Shown here: piece by piece, positions 668 through 17,637 of the stretch
Numbering within the stretch: the stretch's first letter is position 1
How the letters are laid out: every line of letters begins with the position of its first letter
From: Candidatus Saccharimonadota bacterium
GTDB taxonomy: Bacteria; Patescibacteriota; Saccharimonadia; Saccharimonadales; UBA4665
Reading direction: 5' to 3'
Assembly (NCBI GenBank): GCA_016699935.1
Contig: CP064992.1
Span: forward strand, 900,001-932,000
DNA length: 32,000 nt
The notes under the pieces: model-generated
What the model was told of the DNA's origin: nothing
What the model saw: only the letters and a program-made list of their open reading frames with translations
The model's database searches: none
Made by a program: the position numbers and the translations under genes

Positions 668-1623
668 ATGAAACATATTCTTGAGGGGACGGATTTCAAG
701 CTGCCGGGTTGCCAGGCGGTTTTACCATGGCAAAGTGCGCGATGTCTATGACTTTGGCGACCGGCTTATGCTGGTGGCCAGTGACCGCTATAGCGCATTT
801 GACCGGATATTGGCAGGGGTGCCCAACAAAGGTGCGCTACTAACGGCAACGAGCCAGTGGTGGTTCGAGCAGACCGCTTCGATAGTGCCAAATCACATCA
901 TTTCTTACCCTGACCCAAATGTGGCATATTGTAAAAATACGAAGTTATCCCGCTAGAAATGGTGGTGCGAGGCTATATAACGGAGTTACCAACACCTCTC
1001 TGTGGCACACCTATTCGAACGGACAGCGCGATTACGGCACCTTTCAGCTTCCTGACGGGCTAAAAAAGAATGATAAACTACCCGAGCCAGTGCTGACCCC
1101 AACTACCAAGTTTGAGATACATGACCGCAATCTTACTCCGGCCGAAGCACTTACAGAAGGGCTTTTGAAGGATGAAGTTTGGCAACGTGTTAGTGACTAT
1201 GCCCTGCAACTTTTTACTTTTGGCCAGAAGGTGTCCGAAGCCAAAGGGTTGCTGCTGGTCGACACTAAGTACGAGTTTGGTCTGACGCCACAAGGTGAGA
1301 TTATTCTAATAGATGAAATACACACGCAAGATTCATCGCGCTATTGGCTGACAGAAAGCTACCAACAGCGGATTGACGAGGGTGTCGAACCAGACAATTA
1401 CGACAAAGAATATCTGCGGTTATGGTTCAAGGAGCGTTTCGACCCTTATGCAGATACGCCTGCACCAGAAGTACCAGCCGAGATCATCGAAGAGTTGGAG
1501 CGCCGATACCGGTTTGTTTACGAAAGTTTGGCTGGCCAGGCGTTTGAAGAACCCGATACAACGGACATTGTGAAGCGGATTGAAGCAAATGTACTGCGTA
1601 CACTGGGACAACATGAGAGTTAA
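668..1623 (+). CDS. purC: SAICAR synthetase (phosphoribosylaminoimidazole-succinocarboxamide synthase), frame-disrupted as sequenced
   Basis: The ATG at 668 (MKHILEGTDFKLPG) joins ORFs 681-956 and 919-1623. PurC hallmarks present: GKVRDVYD, LMLVASDRYSAFD, LLLVDTKYEFG and ILIDEIHTQDSSRYW. The motif IPLEMVVRGYIT is readable only in the third frame at 947-985. Three 1-nt frame corrections are needed (about 700-715, 947 and 985). Confidence 0.85.
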
Positions 1624-1708
1624 GAGTTATGAGATAAGAGATAAGATTTGTGCTTCGCACAGCGTATTCCCTATCTTACTCCTTAACTCTTATCTCTTAA
1701 CTCTAACC
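1622..1708 (+). terminator. Long imperfect hairpin right after the purC stop (possible terminator or structured spacer)
   Basis: AAGAGTTATGAGATAAGAGATAAGAT (1622-1647) is roughly complementary to ATCTTACTCCTTAACTCTTATCTCTTAACTCT (1673-1704). The loop holds an inner hairpin TGTGC-TTC-GCACA. There is no clear U-tract. Confidence 0.3.
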
Positions 1709-1923
1709 GCTAAGGAGCATGCATGAGCTTGCAGCCACTAGATTTACCTACCCCAACTAAAGAAGGAGAAATGAAAAAAATTACCCATTACCCTGTCGCC
1801 TGTCACCATACATTTACCATTATCCATTAGCCATGAATCCCGGGCCAATAGTGACAGGTTAATTGCGTATATTAGGCCACAGGCCACAGGTTACAAGCCA
1901 ATCTTCCCGGAGGGGAGCTTCTC

Positions 1924-3347
1924 ATGACTCTGCAACCACTAGATTTACCCACCCCAACTGACGACAACCGTTTCAATGCGGTTGATCCGCTCGATGGCCG
2001 CTATTACGACCCAGAGATTGCCAAATATCTTTCGGAACGGACTCGCATACTTACTCAGGCGCATAGAAGCTGCCCTGGCTTACGGCTTGGCGGAGTTTGG
2101 CCTTTGTAGCCAGGAAGTTGCCCAGCAGATAGATGCTGCCAGTCGCAAGATTCGTGGAAGATGTCGCAGAAGAAGAAAAGACTACGCGCCACGACGTAAA
2201 AGCCATCGTCAACACCATCAAAAAAAGATCTGCCAGAAACTGCCCAGCCCTATGTACATTTTGGCGCCACGTCTTATGATATAGTCTCGACAGCTATGAG
2301 TTTGCAGCTGCGAACCGCCGTGCACGATCTGCTTTTGCCTCGTTTGCAAGCTTTGCAAAAAACATTGGCCGAACTGGCCGAACGCTACGCCGACACTGTG
2401 CAAATAGGTCGAACTCACGGTCAACACGCCGTGCCAATCACTTTCGGTTATTTTCTAGCAACCTATGTGCAGCGTTTGGGTGAAAGCACTCGTTCGCTTG
2501 AGGTTTTGAGCGCTAAACTAAAAGGTAAATTCTCTGGGGCGGTTGGCACCTACAATGCCATCTCTGTTTTTGTGGACGACCCACTGGCGTTTGAAAAAAC
2601 CGTACTTGGCTATGTCGGCCTCGAACCAGCGCCAGCTGCCACACAGATTGTCCCGGCCGAAGGCTACATACGCTTGCTCGACGAGCTGGCCATTTCTGCT
2701 GGTGTCATGGCGAACCTATCGCACGACATGCGCAATTTGCAGCGCAGTGAGATTGGCGAAGTGCGTGAGAAGTTCGAGGAAGGCCAAACTGGCTCAAGTA
2801 CCATGGCGCACAAGCGTAACCCCTGGAATTTTGAAAACATCATCGGCATGTGGAAGCAAGTGACAGCGCAGATGGTCAATGCCAACCTAAACATATCGAG
2901 TGAACACCAGCGCGACCTGACCGATTCGTCCTCGGCCCGTTTCTACACAACGTCTTTTGCGCTCGTTGCCTCGATGGCGAAGCGTTTGAACGAGGTCATG
3001 AGCAAGATTGAAGTCGACGAAGAAGCCATGCAGTGCAACTTGTACCTGACGAAAGGTGCCATTGCCGCCGAACCGCTTTACCTGTTGCTCGAAAAGTACG
3101 GCCACACGACGGCGCATGAAGCATCCAAGGCGCTGGCTCACGAAGCAATGGAACGAAACGTCTCTCTGTATGAGGTAGCATCCCAGGCGGAATCGATCGC
3201 TCCCTACTGGTCCAAATTCACCGACGCCGAACGTGACCTAATCCGCTCCCCGAAACCCACTACACCGGTTTGGCCTCCCAGAAGGTCCACGAAGTTGTAA
3301 TAGAACAGCTAGAGTTTGACAATTATACAAATAGTAGTATAGTATAG
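1924..3347 (+). CDS. purB: Adenylosuccinate lyase, frame-disrupted as sequenced
   Basis: ORFs 1924-2109, 1976-2284 and 2296-3300, plus a shifted tail ending at TAG 3345-3347, concatenate to a PurB-type lyase. Motifs: PLDGRY, TRHDVKAIV, HFGATSYDIV, GRTHGQHAVP, the signature GSSTMAHKRNP, and a C-terminal ETHYTGLA. Four frame corrections are needed, one of them in the A7 tract at 2220-2226. Confidence 0.85.
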
Positions 3348-3352
3348 ATCAT

Positions 3353-3867
3353 ATGAGAAAACGTATTTTAACCTCAGCCGTTCTGTCTGTCGGGTTACTT
3401 TTGGGAGGCTGTAGCGAAACAAATCCAGAAACAAGGGTGACAGCTCAGCAACTTAAAGATAATGGATGCAAATCTGGAGAAAAATATCGTGTTGCCGGTA
3501 ATGTGGCGTTGCTAGGCAAAAATCGGAATGGATACCTTATCCAACAGTTGTGCCTGTCACAAAGTTGAATCGTATTATGATAGTGCGTCAAATACTACAA
3601 AAATGCGTACGGTCACAAGTACCGAGGTAAGGATTTCTATCACAGATGGTTGTCACTACTTACGATTTGCGCGGAGATGATGCAACTGATGCGGGTATCC
3701 GCGTCAAGGAAAAGGAGGGCGGATTATACGTACCGAATCTTCCGGTTGTTCCGGCATTTGATAGTACTCATACGGATAGTGTCGATGTCATCGGAGTCGC
3801 TACTCAAGACATGGCAAGGGGCCGCATTATCGCAGCCAATAGCATAGTCTCATCCGACTCGGAGTAG
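3353..3867 (+). CDS. Putative lipoprotein (fragments 3353-3568 and 3646-3867 probably belong to one gene)
   Basis: The N-terminus MRKRILTSAVLSVGLLLGGC has a signal peptide plus a lipobox Cys. The gap between the fragments is open in the other frames (…VESYYDSASNTTKMRTVTSTEVRISITDG…). Upstream lie TTGACA (3316-3321) and TATAGT (3338-3343). No recognisable domain. Confidence 0.5.
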
Positions 3868-4048: not shown

Positions 4049-4077
4049 TTGAAAATATACTGTTCAATGTGTATAAT
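4049..4077 (+). promoter_or_regulatory. Near-consensus promoter with leaderless geometry for the Zn-ribbon gene
   Basis: TTGAAA (4049-4054), a 17-nt spacer, then TATAAT (4072-4077), followed by 6 nt and the ATG at 4084. Confidence 0.5.
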
Positions 4078-4083: not shown

Positions 4084-4467
4084 ATGGAATTTCCATCAGT
4101 AAAATTTAAACCCAGACGCGATAGTTACAGTCGAACTCGAGGTGGAAAATCTACTATACTGTACTTGTCTTGTAGTAACTGCAAAGAGCCAACGCTTGTT
4201 TACCAGAAAGATGGTCCGGGCAAGTTACTACGCTGTTATGCTGATCGTATACTTTGGCCTCCTGATTTGGTAGATAGGCTCGATGCGATTACTCCCGAGA
4301 CAATAAAAACAGTTGGGGTAATTGCCTGCGAAGGATGTATGCAGGTTATCGGAACCCCAACTGTCTATAGGCGAGAAGATCGTTCGGCATTTAGGGTTAT
4401 GCCGGGCTCCCTATACTCAGATGCTTCAATCGAGAGCGCTAAAGCTCGTTCAGTTGGCGAGACCTAA
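4084..4467 (+). CDS. Hypothetical Zn-ribbon protein (two CxxC pairs)
   Basis: ORF 4069-4467. The in-frame ATG at 4084 fits the promoter geometry. CSNC and CEGC pairs lie ~50 residues apart. I recognise no family. The 3' end overlaps the convergent kinase-like gene by 29 nt. Confidence 0.5.
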   Translation: MEFPSVKFKPRRDSYSRTRGGKSTILYLSCSNCKEPTLVYQKDGPGKLLRCYADRILWPPDLVDRLDAITPETIKTVGVIACEGCMQVIGTPTVYRREDRSAFRVMPGSLYSDASIESAKARSVGET

Positions 4468-5103
4468 CAGCATTGACCACTGATAAAATGTCATGTGCAG
4501 TGTCATGAGTGGCGTCTTGGGCATTTACGATGGTTATGTCAATATGCGGATCCATATAATCAGCCATAATAAGGGATGAAAGCTCTCGAAGCCCCTCCTC
4601 CATCCTCTGACTATGGTTTCTGCCAGCTATAGTTAGGCGGGATTTCCAAGCTTCGATCGAACACGGTCGAAGATAAATTTTCAGCAAATCGTAGGCTGGG
4701 CTTTGTAGAGCAGGTACACTTTTTAATGGAAAATCAAGTATCGGAACCAACCCCTGTTTCATGGGGCATAGAATTCCTTCAAAAGGAGTACCATATCTAA
4801 CACCATAGAGCCTATTAACGGTGACAAACGAACCATCTCTCTCTCTCTTCGATCGAACTCTGCTTCCGTCACGCTATCTTTATCTTTTTCTCCAGGGCGT
4901 AACTCTCGGGTGGTTACTGGTCGTACGTATTGGAATTGGGTCGTCCTACTTTGCTCTTGCATCGCTGCAATAACAGCCGATTTGCCGATTGCAGAGGGGC
5001 CGAGCAGTAATACGAATAATCGGTCAGGCCGGATATGACGCTGCTCTATCTCTTTGATTTGCTGCTCACGGACTTCAAAATTTGTACTACAATGATCAGT
5101 CAT
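4439..5103 (-). CDS. Guanylate-kinase-fold nucleoside-monophosphate kinase-like protein, frame-disrupted
   Basis: Motifs: P-loop LLLGPSAIGKS, VTTRELRPGEKD and, after one frame correction, DGSFVTVNRLYGVRYGTPFEG. The correction falls at the (CT)7 tract at 4836-4849. The ATG at 5101-5103 overlaps the stop of the upstream gene (AATGACTGA). Joins ORFs 4759-5184 and 4439-4762. Confidence 0.65.
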
Positions 5104-6004
5104 TAAAAGCAGCCTTAGCGAGTTCGATTGCAGTTCGAAGTTCATCGAAACTACGACGACTTGCGTCTTGCATAGTTTCTTCATCCCTTTTTTTGGGGTA
5201 TAAGATTGCCCTTGAAGCGCTTATCATAACGCCGTAGCCATGGCCATCCAAGCAAAGGGGTAAACTCCGCTCCAGACTACCACCCTGAGTACCGCCTCCG
5301 GCTAAAAGTATTGGTGTCTCATCTCCGATAGTATCTCGAATGTCTCGCAGGTTTTCTGGATGAGTTGCGCTGAGTACAGGTAAAATGTTTCCGTTTGTAT
5401 TCCATGTTGTCATACCTTCGCGCAATAGATGTCGCCATAGTGGTTGGCCATCAAATAGCTTAAGATCTTGTACCTCGCTGGCTGAAGGGTTAGAGGTATT
5501 GATGCATAGTACGACTAGTTTATTTTTCCACTCCGTGAACGGCTTAATAGCGTCCAAACCCATATAAGGATTGAGAAGGACGCCGTCTGCGTCAAGATTA
5601 CCAAAAATCTCGTCTGCAATAGCATTTGCCGTATGTCCGACATCCGCAAACTTTCCATCGCATATACGAACGACGTCAGGGTAGCTTTGTTTGAGGTAAG
5701 CAAATGTGTTAGCGAGTGCTTCTCGCCCGGCGCTTCCCTGAAAGAAATTTGAATTCACTTTATAATCTACGGCACTTGCGGCGGTTGCATCAATTATACG
5801 TTCATTAAACAAGGTTATGCCATCGCTCAAATGACCCTTGCCCCCCACTTCTTCCCATATTTCTTCTGGGATTTTACCCACTACAGGGTCTATGCCGACC
5901 CCGGCCATTGAATCAACTGATAACCATCTACGAATGATCTTTTCGATTCCGGGTGCTGCTGGTTGGTAGGGGTATAATTCTGGCATATGCTGTCTATTCA
6001 CCAT
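5096..6004 (-). CDS. OMP-decarboxylase family protein (type 2), paralog of the canonical pyrF at 11359
   Basis: Intact ORF. Motifs: VGIDP, YKVNSNFF, CDGKFADVGHT (the D-x-K-x-x-D catalytic motif), NPYMGLD, NTSNP and LAGGGTQGG. The likely start, ATG at 6002-6004, overlaps the upstream stop (GATGGTGAATAG). Confidence 0.7.
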   Translation of the reverse strand: MVNRQHMPELYPYQPAAPGIEKIIRRWLSVDSMAGVGIDPVVGKIPEEIWEEVGGKGHLSDGITLFNERIIDATAASAVDYKVNSNFFQGSAGREALANTFAYLKQSYPDVVRICDGKFADVGHTANAIADEIFGNLDADGVLLNPYMGLDAIKPFTEWKNKLVVLCINTSNPSASEVQDLKLFDGQPLWRHLLREGMTTWNTNGNILPVLSATHPENLRDIRDTIGDETPILLAGGGTQGGSLERSLPLCLDGHGYGVMISASRAILYPKKRDEETMQDASRRSFDELRTAIELAKAAFND

Positions 6005-7247
6005 CTGTAGCAAACTTTTCCCATGACGCATCGTTGTATAGCTCATGTCTGTGTTTTGCGGCAACGTGTTCACCTGCTCCACGTGAAGATGTCGTACCGG
6101 TAGGCCGTCTTACAACATTTATACCGCTCGATGCGATGCCACGTGCTTTACTTACATTGTCGGTTTGAAGGCTTATTCTCTCAATTCCAAGCGCGGTGAG
6201 AATCCTGCCCGCACCGGTATATGTCCTAATATCAAATGTATCCCCCAACAGTCTCTGCGCAGCAACTAATGTGTCGACTTTTTTTGGATTAGCCTTATTT
6301 GTTGCAACCGGGGTACCATTTTTATAGCCTTCAGTTTCCATTTTTGTAGCAGATCCGTAGCCCCTACCATCCTGTGCGGGAATATGGAGTATTATGCCCT
6401 CATCTTTATTAATGATCTGGCCCAGAGCAGTGTGGAGCTGTTCGCGACAATCACAGCCACGATCATCATATATCTGCCCGATATCGCAACCTGAGTCTAC
6501 TCTGACAATAAGGTCTTTTTTTGCCACTCTAACAATTGGTTTTGGTGAGAATAGTTCGTAAAATTTCCATGTGTCATCTGGTACGACTAGCCCATACGCG
6601 TAGACTGGGTGGCCGTTAAAAACAAATTTTTTTGCGTATACAGTTTCATAAATATCTGAGTCAGGGGGGTCCCTTTCGAGCGCGGCTAAAGCACTTATCT
6701 TTATATGCGCTTCGGGCTCTCGTAGTCCGATTGCGGTGACTAATCGATTGACCTCTTCCATCGTGTCGCCGTTCAATCCACTAGGACTTACTACCTGTGG
6801 GTAATAGGCCATGCCGGAAGAACAAGGACGTACCAAAACATGTTTTTTACCTCCACCAAATTGGCCCATGACACTTTCGTAGTTTGCATGGCCTGGGAGA
6901 GCTAGTTTATGACCCGCTTCATCTACTTCCAGTATTGTAACTGGGATATTCTGAGGATCTTCGTTGACTTCTTCAGGGTGCGTATTTACATAGATTATCT
7001 GAGAATATCGGTGCGAACCATCACTATCTATTGTCTCAACAGGTGACATCCATGCTGCCCCGCCGTCTACATCAAGGGGCCCGCCTAAAAATTGAGTAAC
7101 CATGCTGCTGGGATTGTTTCCTACGGTTTGGAGTAGGATAAGTTGCTCTAATGCTGAACGGTATCTTTCGCTTATTCGAGGCGCGCCCGCAGCACTAAAC
7201 CGCTCATATACTGATGGTGCTAATCCTGGTAAGAATACTTCACTCAT
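5994..7247 (-). CDS. GTP cyclohydrolase II-like protein with a long N-terminal domain (URC1-type architecture)
   Basis: Intact 417-aa ORF. The C-terminal ~170 aa match the RibA core: VRVDSGCDIGQIYDDRGCDC (a C-x10-C-x-C zinc triad), IPAQDGRGYG, FDIRTYTGAGRILTALGI and LQTDN. A ~240-aa N-terminal extension is present, as in URC1-like homologs. Confidence 0.7.
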   Translation of the reverse strand: MSEVFLPGLAPSVYERFSAAGAPRISERYRSALEQLILLQTVGNNPSSMVTQFLGGPLDVDGGAAWMSPVETIDSDGSHRYSQIIYVNTHPEEVNEDPQNIPVTILEVDEAGHKLALPGHANYESVMGQFGGGKKHVLVRPCSSGMAYYPQVVSPSGLNGDTMEEVNRLVTAIGLREPEAHIKISALAALERDPPDSDIYETVYAKKFVFNGHPVYAYGLVVPDDTWKFYELFSPKPIVRVAKKDLIVRVDSGCDIGQIYDDRGCDCREQLHTALGQIINKDEGIILHIPAQDGRGYGSATKMETEGYKNGTPVATNKANPKKVDTLVAAQRLLGDTFDIRTYTGAGRILTALGIERISLQTDNVSKARGIASSGINVVRRPTGTTSSRGAGEHVAAKHRHELYNDASWEKFATDGE

Positions 7248-7253
7248 ATTTAT

Positions 7254-7282
7254 ATGATAGCATAATAACGTAAATTATTCAA
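7254..7282 (-). promoter_or_regulatory. Internal promoter with leaderless geometry for the GTP-cyclohydrolase-II-like gene
   Basis: The minus strand reads TTGAAT (7282-7277), a 17-nt spacer, then TATCAT (7259-7254), followed by 6 nt (ATAAAT) and the ATG at 7247. Confidence 0.45.
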
Positions 7283-7299
7283 GTATTAGAAAATTATTA

Positions 7300-7932
7300 T
7301 CAAATAGCGTGGTTGTCATTAAATAACTTCACTATATTAACCTCATCACTATTGTGTAGATGACATGAGTCTAGAAAATGATAGTACATTCCTGCCGGTA
7401 AGCCAAGTCGTTTGGCAAGGTATGATTGTAGTGATACGAATTCGAGTAGATTCAGGAGAAGCTTATTGTAGGCATCCGAGGAATGGGCATGCACATGCAT
7501 CTCTAGCTTTCCATACCTGATACGCCCCCAAATAATTTGTGTGCAAGGTGAAATTTTCATATCTTGGTCAATCATTTTGTCCCATAGCGAAATTTGCGAC
7601 GCTCCTGTTGGGTATTCCGAATCCAGTGATCGTAAAAGTATTCAATTTGAGAATTTGGTTCATCAAACATGCGGTGGTGATATAGCTTTGTCCACTCATG
7701 CGTAACGAGAGACTCATTCTCGCCCGAATATATATAGTCGTTGATAATATCGAGATCCGTTTGACTCATTGGGAATCTTTTATCGGCTGGGATAACATCA
7801 GGATTATCAATCTGAATGCAAACTATTTCGTCACGCAGGTATTTACTGTTGCCTGTGTTTTCCTGTGGAGTACAGAGCTGTTAACGTATCAAACCAAGCC
7901 TGGTTAACATCGTTAGCAATAATTTGGAGCAT
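7300..7932 (-). CDS. Short thymidylate-synthase (ThyA) fold protein, frame-disrupted
   Basis: The ATG at 7930-7932 has the SD GGAAGGG. MLQIIANDVNQAWFDTLTALYSTG joins, after a shift near 7857-7860, to …ENTGNSKYLRDEIV…. This then joins ORFs 7572-7769 and 7300-7575. ThyA-like blocks: SQIEYFYDHW..RR, ISPC (the catalytic Cys context), HAHSSDAY, LLLNLLEF and FLDSCHLHNSD. Total length is ~210 aa, like short archaeal-type ThyA. Confidence 0.55.
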
Positions 7933-8017
7933 AATTATCCCTTCCAGCGCAGTATACATGATAACTGAGTATGAACGAAGTATTCTTGGGCGTTAGAATC
8001 TTGCGCCCGAAAGCGCC

Positions 8018-8916
8018 TTATATTTCCTTTTCTAGTATTTTATAAGTAGTGGCTGTGAGCACGCCTGCGCCGAGGGCTTGGGTGAGGGTGAGGCCTTGGG
8101 AGAGGAAGAGCCAGCCGATGAGGACGGCGCTGAGGGGCCAGGCTAGTTCTAGAACTGCCGCGCGGCTGGCGGCGACACGCTGGAGGCCGTAGTAATAGAT
8201 CAGCAGCGCCACTAGGCCAGTGCTACAGGTTATGGCTAGTAGGTAGAAAAACTGTGTTTGGGTGATTTGGCTGACTGCCCCGGCCGAGTGTGATGCGCCT
8301 ATGAAAAGAAGCGAAATTATGGCCGTCAAACCAAACCTGGCGGCAGTGACGTGCGGATACGAGGTGCCTTTCAGGGCGTATTTGGAAAAAGCGGTGCCTA
8401 TACCCCAGCAAGCAGCCGCCCCGACGGCGAACATTGCGGCTTTGAGTGTGCCCTGCCCTGTTGCTAGATTTACGTGAAGGTTCGGGAATGATACCAGGTA
8501 GGCACCGGCTAGTGCCAGCACTGTCAGTCAAGGAATCGAGCCGTTAATCTTTCACGCAACAGCAGTGTCGCGGTGGCGATAGCGAAAACGGGATTGAGCT
8601 GCTGCAGCAGAACTACCACCGAAAAATTGATGAAATTGATCTGCCCAAGCGCAGCTGTGTAAAGAGATGGTGCCAAGTGCACCGGATAGCAGCGCCACCA
8701 GCCCCATCGCCCACCACTGCTTGCGGGTGAGCTCACGGAACTTTGAGCGTGTCGACCACAAAAATGGCACCAGGAAGACGATGCCCAGTATATGCTCGTA
8801 GAAAACAATCACCGATGGCGGCAAGGTGTAGAGATGTCTCCGCAACAAGCCATCGACACTCCATAGTAGCGCGGCGATAACTACAGCCAACGCCCCCGCA
8901 TGTGCGAATTTTTCAT
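8018..8916 (-). CDS. EamA/DMT-family transporter, frame-disrupted
   Basis: ORFs 8552-8890, 8524-8808 and 8018-8521 concatenate to a ~10-TM hydrophobic protein with the duplicated EamA pattern (AALLWS…, AACWG…). The ATG at 8914-8916 has the SD AAAGGGA. One shift lies in the C5 tract at 8892-8896. Confidence 0.7.
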
Positions 8917-9119: not shown

Positions 9120-10225
9120 ATTATTTGTTATGTATGTATACTCTTCCGTAGTAACTCACCACCTTTGCAACCTAAAGGTAGGCGTCCTAAACTGTTATTA
9201 CCACATAACAATGAAAGGAGCCTACCATGGCTTATTCTACCAACCCTAACTTACCAAAAGCGAGAGCAATTGCCATGCAGTTGCTCATCCGTGAAAAGCT
9301 ACCACTACAGGTGGTAGCGAACCGTTGCGGTGTACACCGCAGTACAGTCTGGCGCTGGAAACAGAAATGGGAGGCGCTCAATGAGAACGTTCAGCTTACC
9401 AACGATAACCGACCAACCAGGAGTGCCGGCAATGTATTTAGGCAAGCAGCCCTCAAGTGGCTGGTTCCCACCATTAGCTCCAGGCCATGTACCAGTCCTC
9501 GTGCTGTTGCTCCTTATATTGTTGCCCGAGTACTAGAGCTTCGGGCTCAACTTAAGCGCTGTGCTGAGGTTGTTTGGTACCACATCGCCCGCACGGATGG
9601 CTTACACGTAAGCCTGAGTAGTGTGCGCCGCATATTGCGGCGTTACCACTGCTTTGACGGTGCTCGGAAGAAACGGGTGCGTCCAGATAATCCAAGGCGT
9701 CCCCACGTGACTAGGCCTGGTGAGCTGGTTGAAACGGACACCATTCACTATATTTGCCCATTAACCAAGAGCAGACGGTATGTCTATACCGTCATAGATT
9801 TGTATACCCGTATGGCCTACGTCGAGATCCATCCTCGCATTCTGCCTGGCTTGGCTGCACGTGTGGTGCTACATGCCAGGAATGAGTTTGGCTTTGACTT
9901 CCATATGGTGCAGGCTGACAATGGTCCGGAGTTTAGCCATTACTTTGAGCAAGTGCTCAGAAGAAATGTTATGTCTACCCGACATACCAGACTGGGGAGA
10001 CCTAATGACAATGCACACATAGAACGCTTTAACCGCACCGTCCAGGAAGAATGTCTTGGAAGCTCAATATCCTACAAGATAACCACCAAGCACATACAAA
10101 CAAAACTAGACGATTACCTTGAATATTACAACTTCAAGCGAGTACACTTGAGTTTACAGTGCAAGACTCCTGCTGAAATGTTGCAAGGTCTTGAGTTCTC
10201 TACGCTCTTCAGCACATATGCAAGT
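9120..10225 (+). mobile_element. Insertion sequence with one DDE(rve) transposase gene; the ends are approximate
   Basis: Imperfect inverted repeats: CGTAGTAACTCACCACCTTTGCAAC (9137-9161) against the reverse complement of 10180-10204 (CGTAGAGAACTCAAGACCTTGCAAC). About 21 of 25 positions match, with two 1-nt indels. Weaker similarity extends outward (TATGT…). Exact termini and the target duplication are not resolved. Confidence 0.55.
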
Positions 10226-10270
10226 TCTGGAAGTACAAGGGCTAAATCCCCAATTATTAAGCTTTATTAA
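9227..10270 (+). CDS. DDE transposase with integrase-core (rve) domain and N-terminal HTH (IS481/IS3-superfamily-like)
   Basis: Intact 347-aa ORF with SD AAAGGAG. An HTH-like segment (VANRCGVHRSTVWRWKQKW) is followed by the DDE blocks ETDTIHY, VQADNGPEF and RPNDNAHIERFNRTVQEE, then YNFKRVHLSL. The ORF reads through the right inverted repeat. Confidence 0.85.
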   Translation: MAYSTNPNLPKARAIAMQLLIREKLPLQVVANRCGVHRSTVWRWKQKWEALNENVQLTNDNRPTRSAGNVFRQAALKWLVPTISSRPCTSPRAVAPYIVARVLELRAQLKRCAEVVWYHIARTDGLHVSLSSVRRILRRYHCFDGARKKRVRPDNPRRPHVTRPGELVETDTIHYICPLTKSRRYVYTVIDLYTRMAYVEIHPRILPGLAARVVLHARNEFGFDFHMVQADNGPEFSHYFEQVLRRNVMSTRHTRLGRPNDNAHIERFNRTVQEECLGSSISYKITTKHIQTKLDDYLEYYNFKRVHLSLQCKTPAEMLQGLEFSTLFSTYASSGSTRAKSPIIKLY

Positions 10271-10275
10271 TCCTT

Positions 10276-11329
10276 ATGGTGCCAGTATTGCATTGGGAGG
10301 TAGCAAACAGATTCTGGAAACCACTCGACATCCCTGGCCATGGTTCTTTTGCCGGCTTAGAAAAGATGCTATTTGTTATGGCTCGGTTGGGCAGGTTAAC
10401 AGCAGACAATACTGGAATCGTTGACGAGCTTGGTATCTCCGAAGATAGAACAGCGGCCTGTCTCTCTGCCTCAGACTATGTTTCTGGGCTGGTAGTAAGT
10501 GAAAATATAAAACGATTAGATGTTATGAAAAACGGGCACCCAGAGCTTGCCGAGTTACTTGGTAATGACCCTAGCAAGAATTTATTTGCCCTCGCAAATA
10601 TAAATGCAGACTACGCTCACTCTGGGCAAGAGAGATTCTGAAATTAAACTAGGGTACATCATCCACATTAGAGCCCTACAAGCCTACGGTGCACTTACCA
10701 TCAGAGGTGTTTTGCAATCAGGAGAACTTCCAAAAGATTATTCATTAGGTTTAGCATTAAGATTATTTGCTGAAGCAGCCAGCCATGATGGCACTGAGAA
10801 AGCGTTAGATCAAAAGGAGCTTTGGCGTTTTGCAACTCCTGATATCATGGCTCCGCCTGATTTTACATTACTAGCAAAACAGCTTGGGATGGAAGAGGCC
10901 TCAGCTAATAACCTACAAATAGATGCTTCAGGGCTAATAGTTTTACCTGGTATTAAACCAGTCGATTTTGACGAAGCTAGCTGGTACCAACAAGAATACA
11001 TAGGCGGTATGAGTTCATCGGCAAAAGTGGTTAAGAGCTTTGACATGGCGGATAACAAAAATAACCCCAAGAAAATCAACCCCAAGCAAGATGACACTGT
11101 AAAGCAGCTAGAAAGAATAGAATATAAAAATAGAATGTATGAAACTGGATTGCGTAACATGCCAGGTTTGTTATTACCAGGGTCATTTCACCGCAGACTC
11201 GCTGAAGCGATAATTTCTATAGATCCTGAAGAGCCGCGACATTTTTTCCAAGAACATTGGCGCTCTACTGTTGGCGATATAATTCGTATATTGCGATTTG
11301 TACTAGAAATTGACGCGAGTACCAGCTAG
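10276..11329 (+). CDS. Hypothetical protein (ORFs 10276-10641 and 10604-11329 joined by one frame correction)
   Basis: The two ORFs overlap around 10604-10641 and are in the same orientation. No motif I recognise. The region is visibly AT-richer than the flanking pyr genes and abuts the IS. Confidence 0.4.
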
Positions 11330-11358: not shown

Positions 11359-12174
11359 GTGAAGTTTATAGATAAGTTGCGGGCGTCTGCGGTGAAGAAT
11401 GACTCGCTGGTGTGTGTCGGGCTGGATAGCGACGTGGCGAAGCTGCCAGCTGGAGTCGACCAACTTAGTTTCAATAAGGCAATTGTAGATGCCACGCACG
11501 ACTTGGTGTGTGGGTACAAACCAAATACAGCTTTTTATGAGGCCAGAGGTGCCGAGGGCATACAAGTCCTGAAAGATACATGCGATTACATACGGGCGAA
11601 AGCTCCCGATGTGCTTATCATACTTGACGCCAAGCGTGCTGACATAGGCAATACTAACGCCGGCTATGTGCAGTTTGCCTACGACTACCTGGGCGCCGAT
11701 GCCATCACTCTGCACCCTTACCTAGGCCGTGAGGCGCTAGAGCCATTCCTAGCCCGCGAGGATAAAGGCGCGATTGTGCTGTGCCGGACATCGAACCCTG
11801 GTGCCGGCGAATTCCAAGACCAGTACGTCGACGGCCATAAACTGTACGAGTATGTCGCCAAAATGGTTGCTGGTGATTGGAATGGCAGCGGCAACTGTAT
11901 GCTGGTGGTCGGTGCCACCTACCCTGCCGAAGCGGCAGCGGTCCGACAGATCGTAGGTGATGATGTGTGGTTTTTGGTGCCAGGCGTGGGTGCCCAAGGT
12001 GGCGATGTGCAAAAAACCATGGAAGCCGCCCAAAACAGCCGCGGTGACGGCCTGATAATTAGCAGCTCCCGTGATATCATCTTTGCCAGCTCCGGCACCG
12101 ACTTCGCCGCTGCAGCCCGAAATAGCACAGAATTACTACGAAGTGAAATTAACACCTATAGAAAGGGTAAATGA
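11359..12174 (+). CDS. pyrF: Orotidine 5'-phosphate decarboxylase (type 2)
   Basis: Intact ORF with a GTG start after the SD GGAGGGG. Motifs: CVGLD, YKPNTAFYE, ILDAKRADIGNT, LHPYLG, CRTSNPG and VPGVGAQGG. Confidence 0.9.
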   Translation: MKFIDKLRASAVKNDSLVCVGLDSDVAKLPAGVDQLSFNKAIVDATHDLVCGYKPNTAFYEARGAEGIQVLKDTCDYIRAKAPDVLIILDAKRADIGNTNAGYVQFAYDYLGADAITLHPYLGREALEPFLAREDKGAIVLCRTSNPGAGEFQDQYVDGHKLYEYVAKMVAGDWNGSGNCMLVVGATYPAEAAAVRQIVGDDVWFLVPGVGAQGGDVQKTMEAAQNSRGDGLIISSSRDIIFASSGTDFAAAARNSTELLRSEINTYRKGK

Positions 12175-12175
12175 A

Positions 12176-12791
12176 GTGAAAGTACTTGCAGAACTAGAGA
12201 AAATCGGTGCGGTATTCACAAATAAACATTTTGTCTATACCAGTGGCAAGCACGGCACTGGCTACATAAACATGGATATGATGTTCCCTCATACGTCGTT
12301 GGTTGCCGAAATATGCAAAGAGCTAGCAGCACCCTTTGTCGGAGAGTTCGATACAGTTGTAGCACCCGCCACGGGCGGTATTGTCCTAGCAGTGTTGACT
12401 GCGCGCGAAACTGCGACAAAAGGTGTTTGGGCGGATAAGGGCGGTGAGAGTGGTTTTTGGTTTGAGCGTGCTGGGTTTGCTGCGCAAGTTAACGGTAAAC
12501 GCGTGTTGGTTGTCGAAGACTCGGTTACAACTGGTGGGTCGGTAGAAAGGTATGCCGCGAAATCGAAAAGCTGGTGGTACGATAATTGGCGTAAGCGTAA
12601 TCTGCAATCGTGGTGGTGTGACTGCTGAAGTGCTTAAAGTACCAGGTCTGTATGCGCTCGCAGAGGTTTCTTTTAGCTCATATGAGCCTGCCGATTGTCC
12701 AGAATGTAAGGCTCTGGTTCCGATAGTTGAAGATATGGGGCATGGAGATGATTATAAAAAGAGCATCTGGACTATGCGGGTGGGTACGTAA
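12176..12791 (+). CDS. pyrE: Orotate phosphoribosyltransferase, frame-disrupted
   Basis: The GTG at 12176 lies 1 nt after the pyrF stop. Motifs: FVYTSGKHGTGYINMD and the PRPP-binding loop RVLVVEDSVTTGGS. After a shift near 12545-12560 the protein continues as …KAGGTIIGVSVICNRGG (ORF 12552-12791). Confidence 0.75.
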
Positions 12792-12807
12792 AATTGCAGA
12801 GTAGTTA

Positions 12808-13897
12808 ATGCTGTACGATCCTAGTAAGACGTTTGAGGAAAATGTGGTGAATGGGCCGTTTGATTTGCCTGACCCAACCCGGCTGCCTTTGCAGGGAGAC
12901 TCCCTGCAAGACGAGGCGCAGTTTATGTTCCTCGGATTTCCTATTAACTTTCCGTTTGGGATTGCGGCTGGTTCCCTGCCGACCTCTCGCCATACCAATG
13001 CGGCCTTTGAGCTTGGCTACGACGTGGTGGTTTATAAAACCCAGCGAGCGCACGATTTCCCGTGCAACCCATATCCCAACGTTTTACCGCTACAGGTTGC
13101 AGGAGATTTAACACTCGAAAAACTGAAAGAGCCACTTGTTGTCACTGCTGATTATACAAGCGATCTGTCAAAACTCAACATTACGAATTCTTTTGGCGTG
13201 CCCTCGCCTGACCCGGCGGTATGGACGGCCGACTTGCCTGCCGCTCTGGCTGGTGCCGGGAAAGGCCAGCTGCTCATCATGAGTGTGGTCGGCACTATAC
13301 GTGAGGGCTATGGGCCAGAAGAATATTATGATGATTTTGCAACTGCAGCGCGGCTAGCCAAACTGGCTGGGGCGAAAGCGGTCGAGATCAATCTGTCTTG
13401 CCCAAACGTAGCAAGCGAAGGTGTGATTTGCTATAACCACGATGCAGTAGTCGAAATATGCAAGCGTACCAAAGCGGTGCTCGGCAACACGCCACTGATT
13501 ATCAAAATCGGCTATTTCACTCCGGATCAACAAAACACCCTTGAGGAAATAGTCCGGGATATCACGCCGTATGTGGCGGCCATAAGCGCCATCAATACGC
13601 TGCAGGGTTCGATTTGTGAATGATGATGGTGAGCAAGCCTTGCCAGGCGTGGGTCGGCTAAAAAGCGGGGTGTGTGGTGCCGGGATAAAATGGGCGGGTG
13701 TCGATATGGTGCGGCGGCTCGATGCACTGCGTAAACGCGAGGGGTATGGGTACGAAATAATCGGTGTCGGTGGTGTGATGATACCGGCCGACTTTGCCGA
13801 CTATCGTGCAGCTGGAGCAGATATTGTCCAGGCTGTCACTGCGCCCATGTGGAATCCCCTGCTCGCCCAAGAAATCAAAGCTATGCAACTCCAGTGA
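12808..13897 (+). CDS. pyrD: Dihydroorotate dehydrogenase family protein, frame-disrupted
   Basis: Motifs: FPFGIAAG, VVYKT, NSFGVPSP, EINLSCPN and AISAINT. After a shift near 13615 the protein continues as …GVCGAGIKWAG…IGVGGV (ORF 13616-13897). It lies in an operon with pyrF and pyrE. Confidence 0.7.
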
Positions 13898-13906
13898 CGT
13901 AACTTA

Positions 13907-13926
13907 CATTGTTGTCATTCCCGCGC
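13907..13926. repeat. REP-like GC hairpin ATTCCCGC-GCAG-GCGGGAAT
   Basis: A perfect 8-bp stem sits 10 nt after the pyrD stop. A related hairpin lies at 14326-14344. It could act as a transcript-end stabiliser or terminator stem, but there is no U-tract. Confidence 0.6.
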
Positions 13927-14000
13927 AGGCGGGAATCCATGCACTTCCCCACGTTTCTATGTATGCCAAACTTTAGTGTATCATTTAGCCTCACCCCCAC

Positions 14001-14327
14001 TGGCAGTTCTCGGACTGCCAAGCCGACCAACTTTTGGGCAGCCAAAGTTGGACAAAGCTGCCGGGGAGAATGCAAACGACCGGCTTACTTGAAATTTCTT
14101 TTGACCTGTTTGGTTCCTGCGAAACTCCTCATTACTATTCGTCAAACATTCTCGTCACGCAAGCAGTCCAAAAGAAATTTCAAATCAGTCGTTCTGCGTC
14201 CCCGGTTTTCAGCGACCCAACCCCGACTGCTTCGAAGTGAGCACTCACTGCAGACCGCTAGCAGAGAAGTTGTAGAAGCCGACAACATCCGAGCCAGAAG
14301 CCTCCGCATGGCCAGAATTAGTTATAT
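14001..14327 (+). repeat. Family A structured repeat, copy 2 (candidate ncRNA)
   Basis: Second copy of 142-468, in the same orientation. Local hairpins lie at 14002-14019 and 14027-14051. Nested long-range helices pair 14061-14074 with 14195-14205, 14089-14105 with 14166-14183, and 14107-14112 with 14143-14148. It lies between the convergent ends of pyrD and htpX. Confidence 0.8.
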
Positions 14328-14344
14328 TCCGCCTGTGGCGGAAT
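14326..14344. repeat. REP-like GC hairpin ATTCCGCC-TGT-GGCGGAAT at the 3' edge of family A copy 2
   Basis: A perfect 8-bp stem followed by GGGTTT. It resembles the hairpin at 13907-13926. Confidence 0.55.
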
Positions 14345-14410
14345 GGGTTTAAGTGGCTGGTGGCTTCGAACATGAGCCGATATCTAACGCCGAAGGCTTA
14401 TGAAAACCAA

Positions 14411-15458: not shown

Positions 15459-15487
15459 TTGTAATATCTTGAACTAACTTGTATCAT
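15459..15487 (+). promoter_or_regulatory. Promoter of purA with leaderless geometry
   Basis: TTGTAA (15459-15464), a 17-nt spacer, then TATCAT (15482-15487), followed by 6 nt and the in-frame GTG at 15494. Confidence 0.45.
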
Positions 15488-15493
15488 ACCCAG

Positions 15494-16786
15494 GTGAAAA
15501 TCATAGGTGTTTTTGGGCAACAGCGTGGCGACGAGGGCAAAGGCCGTGTGGTCGATATGCTGGCCGAATCGTGCGACATGGTTGCTCGGTTTAACGGTGG
15601 TAGTAATGCTGGCCATACAGTAGTCCTACCCGATGGCCGTGAACTGGCCTTGCACATTGTGCCTTCGGGTATTGCTCACGAAAAAGCGGTCAACATCATT
15701 GGTAATGGCACCATCGTCGACCCAATCCGTTTCAGCGAAGAAATTGCGTCTATTGAAAGCCTCGGCATTACCGTGACACCCGAAAAGCTCAAGGTTAGTT
15801 CTTCGGCGCATTTGGTTCTGCCCCACTACAAAGTACTGGAAGAAATTCGCGAACTTGGGCGAAGTGCTCAAGGCTCGACCAAGGCAGGTATTGCCGATAC
15901 CTACGCTGCTAAGGCACAACGGTCTGGTGTCCGGGTCGAGCGGCTACTCGGTAGTCACGATGCTCTACTACAGGTCGTACGTGATGGCTTGAACTCGGTA
16001 CAAATGGAGCGAAAAAAGCATGGTTTGCCCCCTGTAGATATCGAAAATGAAGTGAAAATATACAGCGCAGCCATAGTAAAGTTGCAGCCTTTTGTGACCG
16101 ATACCTCAGTGTATGTAAACGAGCATTTAGCGGCGGGCGAGACGCTGCTGGCCGAGGGCGCGCAAGCTTTCTTACTTGACATAGATCACGGTATGTACCC
16201 ATACGTCACCTCTTCTTCGACGACGGCTGGTGGTGTGGCGACTGGCCTGGGTATAGCCCCAACTACGCTCGATCGGTCAATTGGCATAGTCAAAGCTGTG
16301 CAATCACATGTCGGTGGCGGACCGTTCGTGACCGAAATTCATGATGAAAAGCTGCTAGATGTTTTGCACGGCGATATGACGACCATAGACGCCGAAAAGG
16401 GTACCACAACTGGTCGTGTGCGTCGACTAGGTTATCTTGACATCACTGGTATACGCCGGGCAGATATGGTGAATGGTACGACAGAACTCGCCATTACCAA
16501 GCTCGATTGGGTACCACGCTATGGCAAAACTATCAAAGTCTGCACCTCGTACACCTATCGCGGTCAGACTCTTTCTATGGCACCAGATTCAGCCTGGGCG
16601 CTGGAAAAGTGCGAGCCAGTGTATGAGGAACTTTCCGCCTGGGATGAGGATATAACAGAGGTGCGATCTTTCTCGGAACTACCTACTGCTGCCCAAAAAT
16701 ACATTGAAGCTATCGAGAAATGGACGGGCTTACCCGTCACCTATATTGGCGTTGGCCCTCGCCGCGACCAAGTCATCATCCGCTAG
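15494..16786 (+). CDS. purA: Adenylosuccinate synthetase
   Basis: Intact ORF. Motifs: GQQRGDEGKGRVVD (P-loop GDEGKG), NGGSNAGHTV, GSTKAGI, GTTTGRVRR and GVGPRRDQ. The start could be GTG 15494 or TTG 15479. Confidence 0.9.
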   Translation: MKIIGVFGQQRGDEGKGRVVDMLAESCDMVARFNGGSNAGHTVVLPDGRELALHIVPSGIAHEKAVNIIGNGTIVDPIRFSEEIASIESLGITVTPEKLKVSSSAHLVLPHYKVLEEIRELGRSAQGSTKAGIADTYAAKAQRSGVRVERLLGSHDALLQVVRDGLNSVQMERKKHGLPPVDIENEVKIYSAAIVKLQPFVTDTSVYVNEHLAAGETLLAEGAQAFLLDIDHGMYPYVTSSSTTAGGVATGLGIAPTTLDRSIGIVKAVQSHVGGGPFVTEIHDEKLLDVLHGDMTTIDAEKGTTTGRVRRLGYLDITGIRRADMVNGTTELAITKLDWVPRYGKTIKVCTSYTYRGQTLSMAPDSAWALEKCEPVYEELSAWDEDITEVRSFSELPTAAQKYIEAIEKWTGLPVTYIGVGPRRDQVIIR

Positions 16787-17587
16787 TACGTTGTGTTAAA
16801 GCATTTTATAAGGTTTGCAAGGTTTTTTGGAACGTCGCTACATGTCAATTGGTTGATTGAATGGATGGGAAGGATTTTGGCGCTGGTGCTGGTAAGGAAG
16901 GCGGCTTCGTAGTCTTCGAGTGAGTTGAGCGGAATGGGCTGATGGACGATGTCGAAGCCTTGTTCACTGGCCAGTTTGAGAACATGGTCGCGGGTGACGC
17001 CAAGCAGGATGTCTGCTTCAGGCGGTGAGTAGATAGTATTGCCCTTTAGCATAAAGAAATTGCTGCGAGTTCCCTCGGTGATTTCGCCGCGGCGGTCGAT
17101 GAGCAGTGCGTCGTGCGCGCCTTTAGATTGAGCTGCCCGATAAGCTACATAGCTCGGGAGCATATTGAGAGTCTTCGCGTGTGGGTAGGTTCGTTCATAC
17201 TCGTAGGTGGTGCAGTGGCAACCGGTTTTGTACAGTTTCCTCGACGAAGTAAGGTGCGAGGCACAGGACGTATAGCTCGGCATCGGCCGCGGTTTTGCCG
17301 CCGATGAGCAGAATCTTGATATTGCATGTTTCCACTTCATTTGCCGCGATTATATCTGTTATGTAGTGCTCAATTTCACCTGGTTTGTAGGGGTGCTCGA
17401 GGCAGATAGCCTGCGCCGAAAGCTCAAGTCGGCGGCAATGCTCGCTTACAAAGTGTGCTTTGCTATGCGAAACGCGGATGGTTTCGTACACGCCATAACC
17501 GTATGAATATTCGATACTGGCGAGTGGTACAACTGCTTGCTCAGCTGGTAAAATATGGCCATTCTTTGAAAAATATGCGTAACTCAT
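16783..17587 (-). CDS. Class IV (branched-chain / D-amino-acid) aminotransferase-fold protein, frame-disrupted
   Basis: The ATG at 17585-17587 gives MSYAYFSKNGHILPAEQAVVPL…YGYGVYETIRV. After a shift around 17200-17340 the protein continues as …LNMLPSYVAYRAAQSKGAHDALLIDRRGEITEGTRSNFF…LLGVTR. Its end overlaps the purA stop. Confidence 0.65.
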
Positions 17588-17637
17588 GTACCTATAGCGT
17601 AGCTCAGAAAGGTACAATCACCAAAACTACTCTACCC

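Follow-up and report, generated by a model that had tools for sequence, protein, structure and literature searches.

We describe here a conserved nucleotide-enzyme module encountered in a 32,000-nt stretch of the genome of a Candidatus Saccharimonadota bacterium (assembly GCA_016699935.1, contig CP064992.1, positions 900,001 to 932,000 of the forward strand; the whole stretch is called the window below, and coordinates count from its first base). The core of the module consists of a zinc enzyme resembling GTP cyclohydrolase II (GCH II), a paralogue of the type-2 orotidine 5'-monophosphate (OMP) decarboxylase PyrF, a guanylate-kinase-like nucleoside monophosphate (NMP) kinase, and a small four-cysteine protein, present once or twice, that we call c2; these core proteins stay together across very distant host-dependent lineages. 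Two further proteins are accessories, namely a thymidylate-synthase-like (ThyA-like) one, which occurs in Saccharibacteria and in a few more groups, and one of the NTPase_1 family. Overall, we believe that the module is best read as a pyrimidine-nucleotide pathway that would end in, or start from, a cyclohydrolase acting on a pyrimidine nucleoside triphosphate (NTP). The components belong to known superfamilies, and the combination is one for which we found no description in the searchable literature: no account of the module turned up in full-text searches directed at the gene combination, at the family in Saccharibacteria or Patescibacteria, or at UTP cyclohydrolase. This agrees with the initial annotation of this DNA, a reading of the sequence made without database searches, which knew of no described pathway of this composition.

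Conservation and spread of the module

The initial annotation had proposed that four minus-strand genes of the window, encoding the ThyA-like, cyclohydrolase-like, decarboxylase and kinase proteins, form a dedicated set of nucleotide enzymes and are not adjacent by chance. All four are present at the coordinates given in Table 1, and their order is found again in many genomes, where the flanks differ. An alignment-based scan, with one genome per species, recovered 58 loci carrying the cyclohydrolase-like family (related loci are given L numbers below); a scan of genome contigs with a single protein as query returned no matches. Partners were counted across all fetched loci, in the 45 where no less than 2.5 kb of sequence flanks the cyclohydrolase-like gene on either side, and a partner had to lie within 4 kb. 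Co-occurrence in other genomes had been set beforehand as the test, and decarboxylase, kinase and c2 are found together in 25 of the 45 loci. Taken singly, c2 stands beside the cyclohydrolase-like gene in 36 loci and some NMP kinase likewise in 36, a guanylate-kinase-like (GK-like) kinase being the partner in 29 and the decarboxylase in 28; nine loci carry two c2 copies. This co-localisation is far above chance, and three c2 proteins that were picked only for their long contigs all proved to lie inside the module (3/3). The ThyA-like gene is a neighbour in 14 of the 45 loci. Hence the cyclohydrolase-like, decarboxylase and kinase genes of the proposed four-gene set stand as its core, while the ThyA-like gene is reduced to an accessory and c2 had been missed.

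In the Saccharibacteria loci L001, L002 and L003, the ThyA-like, cyclohydrolase-like, decarboxylase and kinase genes follow one another in this order and are met by a convergent c2 gene, all of them intact; the four enzymes of Saccharibacteria homologue loci measure 209, 403, 295 and 212 residues, respectively. The flanks of these three loci are unrelated to each other despite the shared module order, an order that is intact in about 15 Saccharibacteria-type loci. Beyond Saccharibacteria, the family is spread through other Patescibacteria (Shapirobacteria, Parcubacteria-type genomes and Peribacteria), DPANN archaea (Nanobdellota, Woesearchaeota and Micrarchaeota), Dependentiae/Babeliaceae, Chlamydiae, Holosporales, several proteobacterial metagenome-assembled genomes (MAGs) and a few others.

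Fusions join the three enzymes and are strong evidence that they serve one pathway. A search of 1.84 billion representative proteins returned P0259, in which cyclohydrolase-like and decarboxylase domains share a chain of 551 residues, and P0288, in which cyclohydrolase-like, decarboxylase and kinase domains follow one another, in gene order, over 782 residues; in L031, L054 and L072, decarboxylase and kinase form a single protein. With the recurrent gene order, these fusions bear out the claim of a dedicated set, one that also looks co-transcribed.

Several variations surround this core. In many Saccharibacteria an NTPase_1 (THEP1-like) gene lies divergently upstream of the module (L001, 4467-5312; L004-L007, L009, L011, L012 and L016), and it also adjoins the lone cyclohydrolase-like gene of L004; the C-terminus of its product carries a SWIM-like CxC...CxH motif. 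A Holosporales-type variant (L022, L026, L027, L030 and L032) is without decarboxylase and c2, its partners being a ROK-NTPase_1 fusion, a zinc-lid enzyme of the adenylate-kinase type and a second NTPase_1 protein. At L068, FolC-like and DHFR genes (614-2354) are found some 5 kb upstream of a module that comprises cyclohydrolase, decarboxylase and kinase genes and no ThyA-like gene.

A phage origin or a role in DNA hypermodification was considered and rejected: no relatives of the cyclohydrolase-like protein turned up in viral contigs, and just three c2 matches did, one of them inside a Patescibacteria-like cyclohydrolase-c2-Cmk cluster. Stand-alone c2 homologues occur on contigs classed as viral (L064, 7848-8336; L066, about 8001-8120), one of which is a giant-virus MAG, with no other module genes nearby.

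The cyclohydrolase-like enzyme

On sequence comparison, the cyclohydrolase-like family is a third branch beside RibA and UTP cyclohydrolase, the latter being the URC1/UrcA enzyme of the URC route of pyrimidine degradation (structures 7EEV and 7EJ3; Zhang et al., ACS Catal 2021;11:8895, as cited in PMC12507026). A domain of about 190-240 residues precedes the GCH II fold. The zinc triad, C254-x10-C265-x-C267 in the window protein, is invariant in 29 aligned sequences, as are an arginine equivalent to RibA R128 and a TDNxxK motif across the family; the window protein also has DGRGYG, and R-x-D-S-G-C and HIPxQDGRG serve as the family signature. With its fold, zinc triad, R128 equivalent and phosphate motif (T[D/N]NxxK), the enzyme resembles RibA (2BZ0). 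At the same time, it differs from RibA close to the zinc site: His51 is replaced by Asp and Glu53 by Gly, such that the whole family reads DSGC where RibA and UTP cyclohydrolase have HSEC or HDEC, and the position of Tyr105 is taken by Glu in long forms and by Leu in short forms. The long forms further differ from RibA by the extra N-terminal domain, and there is an 11-residue insert.

The initial annotation had called this enzyme URC1-type, a label of which the architecture, an N-terminal domain of about 200 residues ahead of a GCH II zinc domain, survives, together with the arginine that follows the cysteine triad (CxCR, common to the module family and UTP cyclohydrolase) and the pyrimidine context. 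The closer affinity is to RibA. The family profile scores 58-70 bits against RibA-type chains and 16.4 bits (E 0.031) against 7eev and 7ej3, and the Pfam domain GTP_CH_N (PF12471) went undetected in 29 of 29 members at E values up to 5. In the AlphaFold2 (AF2) model of the protein (predicted local distance difference test, pLDDT, 89.4), Foldseek places the C-terminal half on RibA 2bz0 with a target-normalised template-modelling (TM) score of 0.82, and the full chain aligns loosely with UTP cyclohydrolase 7eev, over about 345 columns at a root-mean-square deviation of 12 and 16% identity. Nor do the partners agree, since URC1 is accompanied by URC4 and uracil phosphoribosyltransferase (UPRT) in free-living organisms that draw nitrogen from pyrimidines, whereas the module enzyme is found in reduced symbionts with the decarboxylase, the GK-like kinase and c2. 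Curated RibA models are likewise matched below their cut-offs (NF001591 RibA subfamily, 68.3 against 148 bits; TIGR00505, 61.7 against 205.85 bits).

RibA is the first enzyme of riboflavin synthesis, and the surroundings of the module suggest that its cyclohydrolase-like enzyme does not serve this purpose. The gene clusters that recur across the loci include no rib genes, singleton neighbours being mostly unannotated. Next to the module in the window, an EamA-family transporter gene (8018-8890, minus strand) is directly preceded by a flavin mononucleotide (FMN) riboswitch (RF00050, 8944-9072, minus strand; a full-model match of 59.3 bits against a gathering score of 66.2, E 6.9e-12), and the pair is likely to be a riboflavin importer under FMN control. 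Because this riboswitch precedes the transporter next door, import of riboflavin is suggested instead of its synthesis. Module and EamA gene share a strand, the module beginning 85 nt downstream, and the interval holds no clear terminator. As for a riboswitch that might hint at a ligand of the module itself, the window holds only the FMN element of the neighbouring transporter, and 19 related loci held nothing.

Decarboxylase, kinase and ThyA-like partners

The decarboxylase looks fully competent from its sequence. It scores 155.6 bits against NCBIfam TIGR02127 (pyrF_sub2), above the equivalog cut-off of 110.6, and the window protein has the motifs GIDP, YKVN, CDGKFADVGHT, NPYMG, NTSNP, GGGTQGG and SASR; the corresponding catalytic and ligand-binding elements of type-2 PyrF (GxDP, YK, DxKxxD...T, NPYMG, TSN, GxQGG and SSR) are kept across the aligned module decarboxylases, the presumably exported versions included. 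In this genome it is an extra copy, as the initial annotation had recognised, because a separate canonical type-2 pyrF (11359-12174; PF00215, E 2.8e-32) lies in the window and is followed by pyrE and pyrD. It resembles UMP synthase in that the decarboxylase is fused to a neighbouring step in some organisms; the fusion partner differs, being the NMP kinase or the cyclohydrolase-like domain and not orotate phosphoribosyltransferase. Unlike PyrF, the module decarboxylase of intracellular lineages starts with a signal-peptide-like segment.

The kinase is not a normal guanylate kinase and, as far as alignments can tell, has been re-specified. It shares the fold family of Gmk and PhnN, a P-loop (GPSAIGKS in the window protein) and the Gmk-type NMP-phosphate motif TTRxxRxGE (TTRELRPGE). 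When aligned to solved Gmk (4f4j), however, the guanine-contacting Glu is replaced by Val and the Asp by Pro (yeast E69 and D100), and a three-residue deletion takes out the GxxY segment. Intact orthologues measure 205-215 residues, and one of them scores 65.6 bits against TIGR03263, whose cut-off is 160.45, and 54.8 bits against PhnN. PhnN is a ribose 1,5-bisphosphate phosphokinase of the same superfamily as Gmk; a PhnN-like enzyme forming phosphoribosyl pyrophosphate was considered and is unlikely, given that the Gmk-type NMP motif is kept.

The ThyA-like protein is most similar in build to the archaeal-type thymidylate synthases, with about 200-210 residues and, in an intact orthologue, an end-to-end alignment to TIGR03283 (thy_syn_methano), to which it nevertheless scores 61.2 bits against a cut-off of 174.55. 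The window copy has SPC, HSSD and DSCHLH, and alignment to B. subtilis ThyA (1BKO) indicates that the catalytic Cys and the uracil-specifying Asn (E. coli C146 and N177) are kept; among 22 aligned family members the Asn is present in 22 and the Cys in 21, L042 being the one without. In the Saccharibacteria clade, SSRRH has become VGEAQ and RSxD has become (N/H)SSD, and with them three of the four arginines that bind the phosphate of dUMP (equivalents of Arg126, Arg127 and Arg166) are gone, whereas the Parcubacteria and DPANN versions keep two of these three.

These comparisons also bear on the plainest explanation, that ordinary housekeeping thyA, ribA, pyrF and gmk genes merely lie side by side. 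Each protein does match its housekeeping family in Pfam and NCBIfam, and the decarboxylase even passes the pyrF equivalog cut-off. Nonetheless, we regard this explanation as scarcely credible: the cyclohydrolase-like, kinase and ThyA-like proteins fall far under their equivalog cut-offs, the kinase is without its guanine-binding residues, a separate canonical pyrF lies 5 kb away, the FMN riboswitch on the transporter suggests riboflavin import, and the module is conserved, fused and associated with c2.

The c2 family

When the open reading frames (ORFs) of the related loci were clustered, a family of about 105-130 residues emerged as the most faithful partner of the cyclohydrolase-like gene. 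A profile search raised 1579 relatives of this family, c2, none with a consistent Pfam domain, and a Pfam search with the window protein gave no match. Four cysteines are invariant (C35, C38, C87 and C90), forming two CxxC pairs about 50 residues apart, and so are R24, Y45, Q46, K47, D48, G51, R55, Y57, R60 and R105. The AF2 model (pLDDT 90.4) is mostly beta-strand. Against the PDB, Foldseek gave no significant match to it, the best having a probability of about 0.2; the recurrent weak matches are to the CULT domain of cereblon and to YPEL5, with a target-normalised TM of 0.48-0.55 for cereblon isoform 4 (probability about 0.2). Weak Pfam matches among 51 members tell a similar story, with Yippee-Mis18 in 27 (best E 0.0011), RIG-I_C-RD in 23 (best E 1.4e-4) and a plant beta-tent family in 18. 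Taken together, the two CxxC pairs, the beta-rich model and the weak recurrent matches make it likely that c2 has a beta-tent zinc fold like that of the Yippee/Mis18, CULT and RIG-I C-terminal domains, from which it differs by invariant Arg, Lys, Tyr, Gln and Asp residues peculiar to it and by belonging to no Pfam family. Known ligands are uridine and cyclic imides for CULT and 5'-triphosphates for the RIG-I C-terminal domain. The idea that c2 replaces PyrE was rejected, as a pyrE ORF (read by eye) and two c2 copies coexist in Parcubacteria operons.

In four loci a tRNA gene lies a few hundred bases past c2 (L002, 9773-9844; L009, 11554-11625; L010, 4085-4156; L020, 5345-5418), three of these loci being Saccharibacteria-type and one from Shapirobacteria; between positions 3000 and 4069 of the window no tRNA gene was found.

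Pyrimidine context and export

The theme of the module is uracil and cytosine nucleotides. In L040 and L062 it stands at the end of a carA-carB-pyrE-pyrD-pyrB-pyrC cluster (names read by eye from the sequences), and L037 has the same car-pyr cluster, identified in the same way, in a locus that ends inside the decarboxylase gene. Where the GK-like kinase is lacking, the cyclohydrolase-like gene is adjoined by a cytidylate kinase in five loci, by the zinc-lid adenylate-kinase-type enzyme in Holosporales, by a PyrH-like gene of the amino-acid-kinase family in L069, by uridine kinase and a PfkB kinase in L019, or by AAA_28 and NTPase_1 P-loop proteins or a ROK-NTPase_1 fusion; a CTP-synthase-like gene lies nearby in some loci.

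This setting weighs on a further alternative that the initial annotation had offered, namely an anti-phage defence system that depletes nucleotides or a gene cluster for a nucleoside natural product. The module of L001 does adjoin an SMC-like ATPase and a type IIL restriction-modification gene, and variable flanks and a lower GC content at third codon positions (GC3) would suit either kind of locus. Against this, PADLOC gave no match for the four enzymes (c2 was left out of the scan), most loci lie outside defence islands, the module sits inside the pyr operon in Parcubacteria, and the genomes that carry it are mainly very small ones of reduced symbionts that are probably without secondary metabolism otherwise. 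Accordingly, neither alternative has held up, and we rate both as highly improbable.

In Dependentiae, Chlamydiae, Babeliaceae, Holosporales and related proteobacterial loci, module proteins begin with signal-peptide-like N-termini, in which one or two basic residues are followed by a hydrophobic stretch, and several have AxA-like cleavage sites. The proteins concerned are the cyclohydrolase-like enzyme, the decarboxylase, the GK-like or adenylate-kinase-like kinase and the upstream c2 copy, in the module loci L021, L023, L024, L028, L029, L031 and L033 and in the five loci of the Holosporales variant; the second c2 copy and the ThyA-like protein of L029 are without such an N-terminus. The maximum hydropathy over 11 residues at the N-terminus of the cyclohydrolase-like and decarboxylase proteins is 1.8-3.0 in intracellular lineages, a range that leaves out two cyclohydrolase-like ORFs cut by the locus end, and 0.3-1.9 in Saccharibacteria-type and short-form loci. 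These signal-peptide-like N-termini therefore suggest that the pathway works outside the cytoplasm in those organisms. The upstream c2 copy of the intracellular lineages has a long low-complexity linker. A look for nucleotide transporters among the neighbours of the presumably exported versions, with sequences read by eye, returned only unrelated genes.

Proposed pathway

In the reading that we prefer, and to which we would give somewhat less than an even chance, the decarboxylase and kinase would raise OMP to uridine mono- and diphosphate (UMP, UDP), and the cyclohydrolase-like enzyme would then hydrolyse the ring of a pyrimidine NTP. The decarboxylase, its catalytic and uracil-binding motifs intact, would convert OMP to UMP; the adjacent or fused kinase, having lost its guanine-binding residues, would convert UMP to UDP, and nucleoside kinases would contribute in other lineages. 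Once the triphosphate has formed, the cyclohydrolase-like enzyme would bind a pyrimidine NTP (UTP or CTP) and, like RibA and UTP cyclohydrolase, would release pyrophosphate (PPi) and attack the base hydrolytically through zinc-bound water. The kinases would be the suppliers of the cyclohydrolase, a part that uridine kinase and UPRT play for URC1 in the yeast URC pathway, and the presumed need for kinases that raise a uracil nucleotide to the triphosphate would be one more likeness to URC1/UrcA. In this scheme c2 would be a nucleotide- or phosphate-binding partner, and the ThyA-like protein would act on the C5 position of a uracil nucleotide. Symbionts that feed on nucleic acids may in this way reclaim ribose phosphate from pyrimidine nucleotides that they have in excess; alternatively, it may be the ring-opened product that the cell needs.

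Several points weigh against this scheme. The chemistry of the cyclohydrolase-like enzyme may differ, because both the residues next to the zinc site (DSGC) and the position of Tyr105 depart from RibA and UTP cyclohydrolase, and the substrate of the ThyA-like protein is uncertain in the Saccharibacteria clade, where three of the four phosphate-binding arginines are gone. The enzyme that would convert UDP to UTP lies outside the module core. The two main difficulties concern setting and export: a route that consumes UTP is hard to square with a position at the end of a de novo pyr operon, and signal-peptide-bearing versions would meet ample host UTP without needing a decarboxylase. Finally, the copy in the window could be genuinely inactivated, a matter to which we return below.

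The main rival, which we judge unlikely, would have the pathway converge on UMP: the cyclohydrolase-like enzyme would convert another pyrimidine NTP to UMP (or dUMP) and PPi, the candidate substrates being CTP or dCTP, which would be deaminated hydrolytically, and an NTP from the host that is damaged or modified. The decarboxylase and, in some genomes, uridine kinase may then supply UMP in parallel, with the kinase leading to UDP and a deoxy branch through the ThyA-like protein leading to dTMP. Every partner does make or use a uracil or cytosine mononucleotide, the kinase comes last in the fused order of cyclohydrolase-like, decarboxylase and kinase domains, the ThyA-like protein keeps its uracil-specifying Asn, and RibA-type enzymes are established to give an NMP-level product and PPi. 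The acidic residue that long forms have at the Tyr105 position would also suit a deaminase. However, this Glu is not conserved, short forms having Leu in its place, which is why Glu306 as a deaminase-type catalytic base (CTP to UMP) was demoted to part of this rival; we know of no member of the GCH II family that is a deaminase; a dCMP deaminase gene adjoins the module in L071, where the conversion of C to U is thus already provided for; and a cascade leading up to the triphosphate would account equally well for the nucleoside kinases and the NTPase_1 or AAA_28 proteins next to the gene.

The initial annotation had favoured a route that builds, remodels or degrades a modified pyrimidine nucleotide. 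Its pyrimidine theme has been borne out, and nothing shows that a nucleotide is modified. On a further reading, the module would synthesise an unusual nucleotide: an abundant NTP would be hydrolysed, decarboxylated and phosphorylated again, with C5 methylation or hydroxymethylation by the ThyA-like protein in some lineages, and the product, a non-canonical di- or triphosphate, may serve as a nucleic-acid modification, as a cofactor or, in exported versions, as an effector directed at the host. Gene and domain order fit a strictly consecutive three-step route, the genome has a second, canonical pyrF, the residues at the phosphate site of the ThyA-like protein are odd, and signal-peptide-like N-termini are found on all three enzymes and one c2 copy in intracellular lineages. 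Even so, we consider this quite unlikely. We found no hydrolysis of a standard NTP that would give the decarboxylase, whose OMP motifs are intact, a substrate resembling a 6-carboxy-uridylate; glycosylase, transferase or polymerase partners are lacking; and the cyclohydrolase-like family is absent from the viral contigs scanned.

On a bolder reading, to which we give a real chance though clearly less than an even one, the module would encode a previously unknown pyrimidine-nucleotide pathway typical of host-dependent prokaryotes, centred on a third functional class of GCH II enzymes and a new beta-tent zinc family, which in Dependentiae, Chlamydiae and Holosporales-like organisms might be exported as a whole and work on nucleotides of the host. 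Host nucleotides sustain Patescibacteria, DPANN archaea and intracellular bacteria, whose ways of processing them are understood only in part. One such bacterium feeds on host RNA (2026 preprint, doi 10.64898/2026.06.21.733656). In this context the module, conserved, sometimes fused and apparently sometimes exported, is a candidate for a missing piece of symbiont nucleotide metabolism. Solving it would assign a function to the third GCH II branch and to a family of about 1,600 members without a Pfam entry, and would correct a routine misannotation as ribA, pyrF and gmk, labels that inflate the apparent capacity of reduced genomes for riboflavin and de novo pyrimidine synthesis.

Frameshifts in the window copy

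Two of the enzyme genes are interrupted in the window. The ThyA-like gene has two frameshifts, one near 7857-7863 (GGAAAAC) and one near 7625, and the kinase gene has one inside the (AG)n run at 4836-4849; all three sites fall in short repeats or base runs. Apart from the shifts, neither frame holds a further stop codon, and once repaired both proteins match intact orthologues from end to end, with a local identity of about 62-65%. After this repair, the Pfam profile search proposed in the initial annotation matched Thymidylat_synt, GTP_cyclohydro2, OMPdecase and Guanylate_kin, and every motif that it had quoted was found in the translations.

Other genes of the window look broken in the same manner, into two or three ORFs. 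The purB gene (1976-3300) and the EamA gene are each in two pieces, both halves of which were inspected, and adjacent or overlapping ORFs on the same strand occur in the pyrD (12808-14352), class-IV aminotransferase (16783-17617) and DEAD-box helicase (18935-20166) regions, which are apparently split as well. Such splitting is typical of uncorrected indel errors in long-read assemblies. Because other window genes look split alike, the sites lie in repeats or runs and the orthologues are intact, the three frameshifts are most likely indel errors of the assembly. That the module of this genome is instead a decaying pseudogene remnant, with truly frameshifted ThyA-like and kinase genes, we consider very unlikely. 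Three frameshifts within two of four genes and a nearby insertion sequence (IS) transposase would fit decay, yet they must be set against the similarly split purB and other genes, the placement of the shifts in short base runs or a dinucleotide repeat, and frames that are otherwise open and align with their orthologues throughout.

Layout of the locus and its surroundings

The features of the module are collected in Table 1. The last three enzyme genes are joined by start/stop overlaps, as the initial annotation had noted: the decarboxylase ATG at 6004 (MVNRQHMPELY...) and the TAG of the cyclohydrolase-like gene at 5996-5994 overlap by 11 nt, and the kinase ATG at 5102 (MTDHCS...) overlaps the decarboxylase TGA at 5098-5096. 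As a mechanical ORF, the decarboxylase begins at GTG 6082. Between the ThyA-like and cyclohydrolase-like genes lies an AT-rich gap of 52 nt that holds one of the two promoter-like sites. The c2 gene is convergent with the kinase gene and overlaps its 3' end; from the likely start at ATG 4084 its protein would read MEFPSVKFK..., and if this is the start, the promoter-like site ahead of it would give a nearly leaderless mRNA. The cyclohydrolase-like protein of the window is 100% identical to IPL68_05900 (Candidatus Saccharibacteria).

Table 1. Features of the module in the window
Feature	Coordinates	Strand	Basis
Candidate promoter-like site, TTGAAA-17-TATAAT, 11/12 matches	4049..4077	+	Consensus match only
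c2, four-cysteine protein, 127-132 aa	4084-4467 (likely ATG)	+	ORF listing; mechanical ORF from GTG 4069
Guanylate-kinase-like NMP kinase, ~221 aa after repair	4439..5102	-	Pfam Guanylate_kin, E 8.5e-10
Type-2 OMP decarboxylase paralogue, 296-302 aa from ATG 5986 or 6004	5096..6004	-	Pfam OMPdecase, E 6e-12
GTP-cyclohydrolase-II-like zinc enzyme, 417 aa, intact	5994..7247	-	PF00925 GTP_cyclohydro2, E 4.1e-20, residues 245-381
Candidate promoter-like site, TTGAAT-17-TATCAT with TG	7254..7282	-	Consensus match only
Short ThyA-like gene, 211 aa after repair	7300..7932	-	Pfam Thymidylat_synt, E 2.9e-6, 27.1 bits against cut-off 24.3

The initial annotation had also described this region as AT-richer than its flanks and suggested acquired DNA. 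The difference is real and modest: the module genes have a GC3 of 0.36-0.42, against 0.46-0.61 for purB, pyrF, pyrD, purA and others, while two other ORFs of the window are as AT-rich by this measure. Lower GC3, variable flanks and an IS transposase 1.3 kb upstream of the ThyA-like gene fit mobility or transfer of the module, which makes acquisition plausible, short of proof.

The IS-type transposase (rve integrase core and helix-turn-helix; 9227-10270, plus strand) lies between the EamA transporter gene and the pyrF-pyrE-pyrD cluster, which spans 11359-14352 (plus strand) and is found 3.4 kb upstream of the ThyA-like gene. The same window holds purC and purB at 919-3300 and purA at 15479-16786, so the de novo synthesis of nucleotides is at least partly encoded in this Saccharibacterium, something unusual among Saccharibacteria. 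Two unannotated AT-rich ORFs (10276-11329) follow the transposase, and between purB and c2 lies a small ORF (3353-3568, plus strand), without a Pfam match, whose product begins with a lipoprotein-type signal (MRKRILTSAVLSVGLLLGGCSE).

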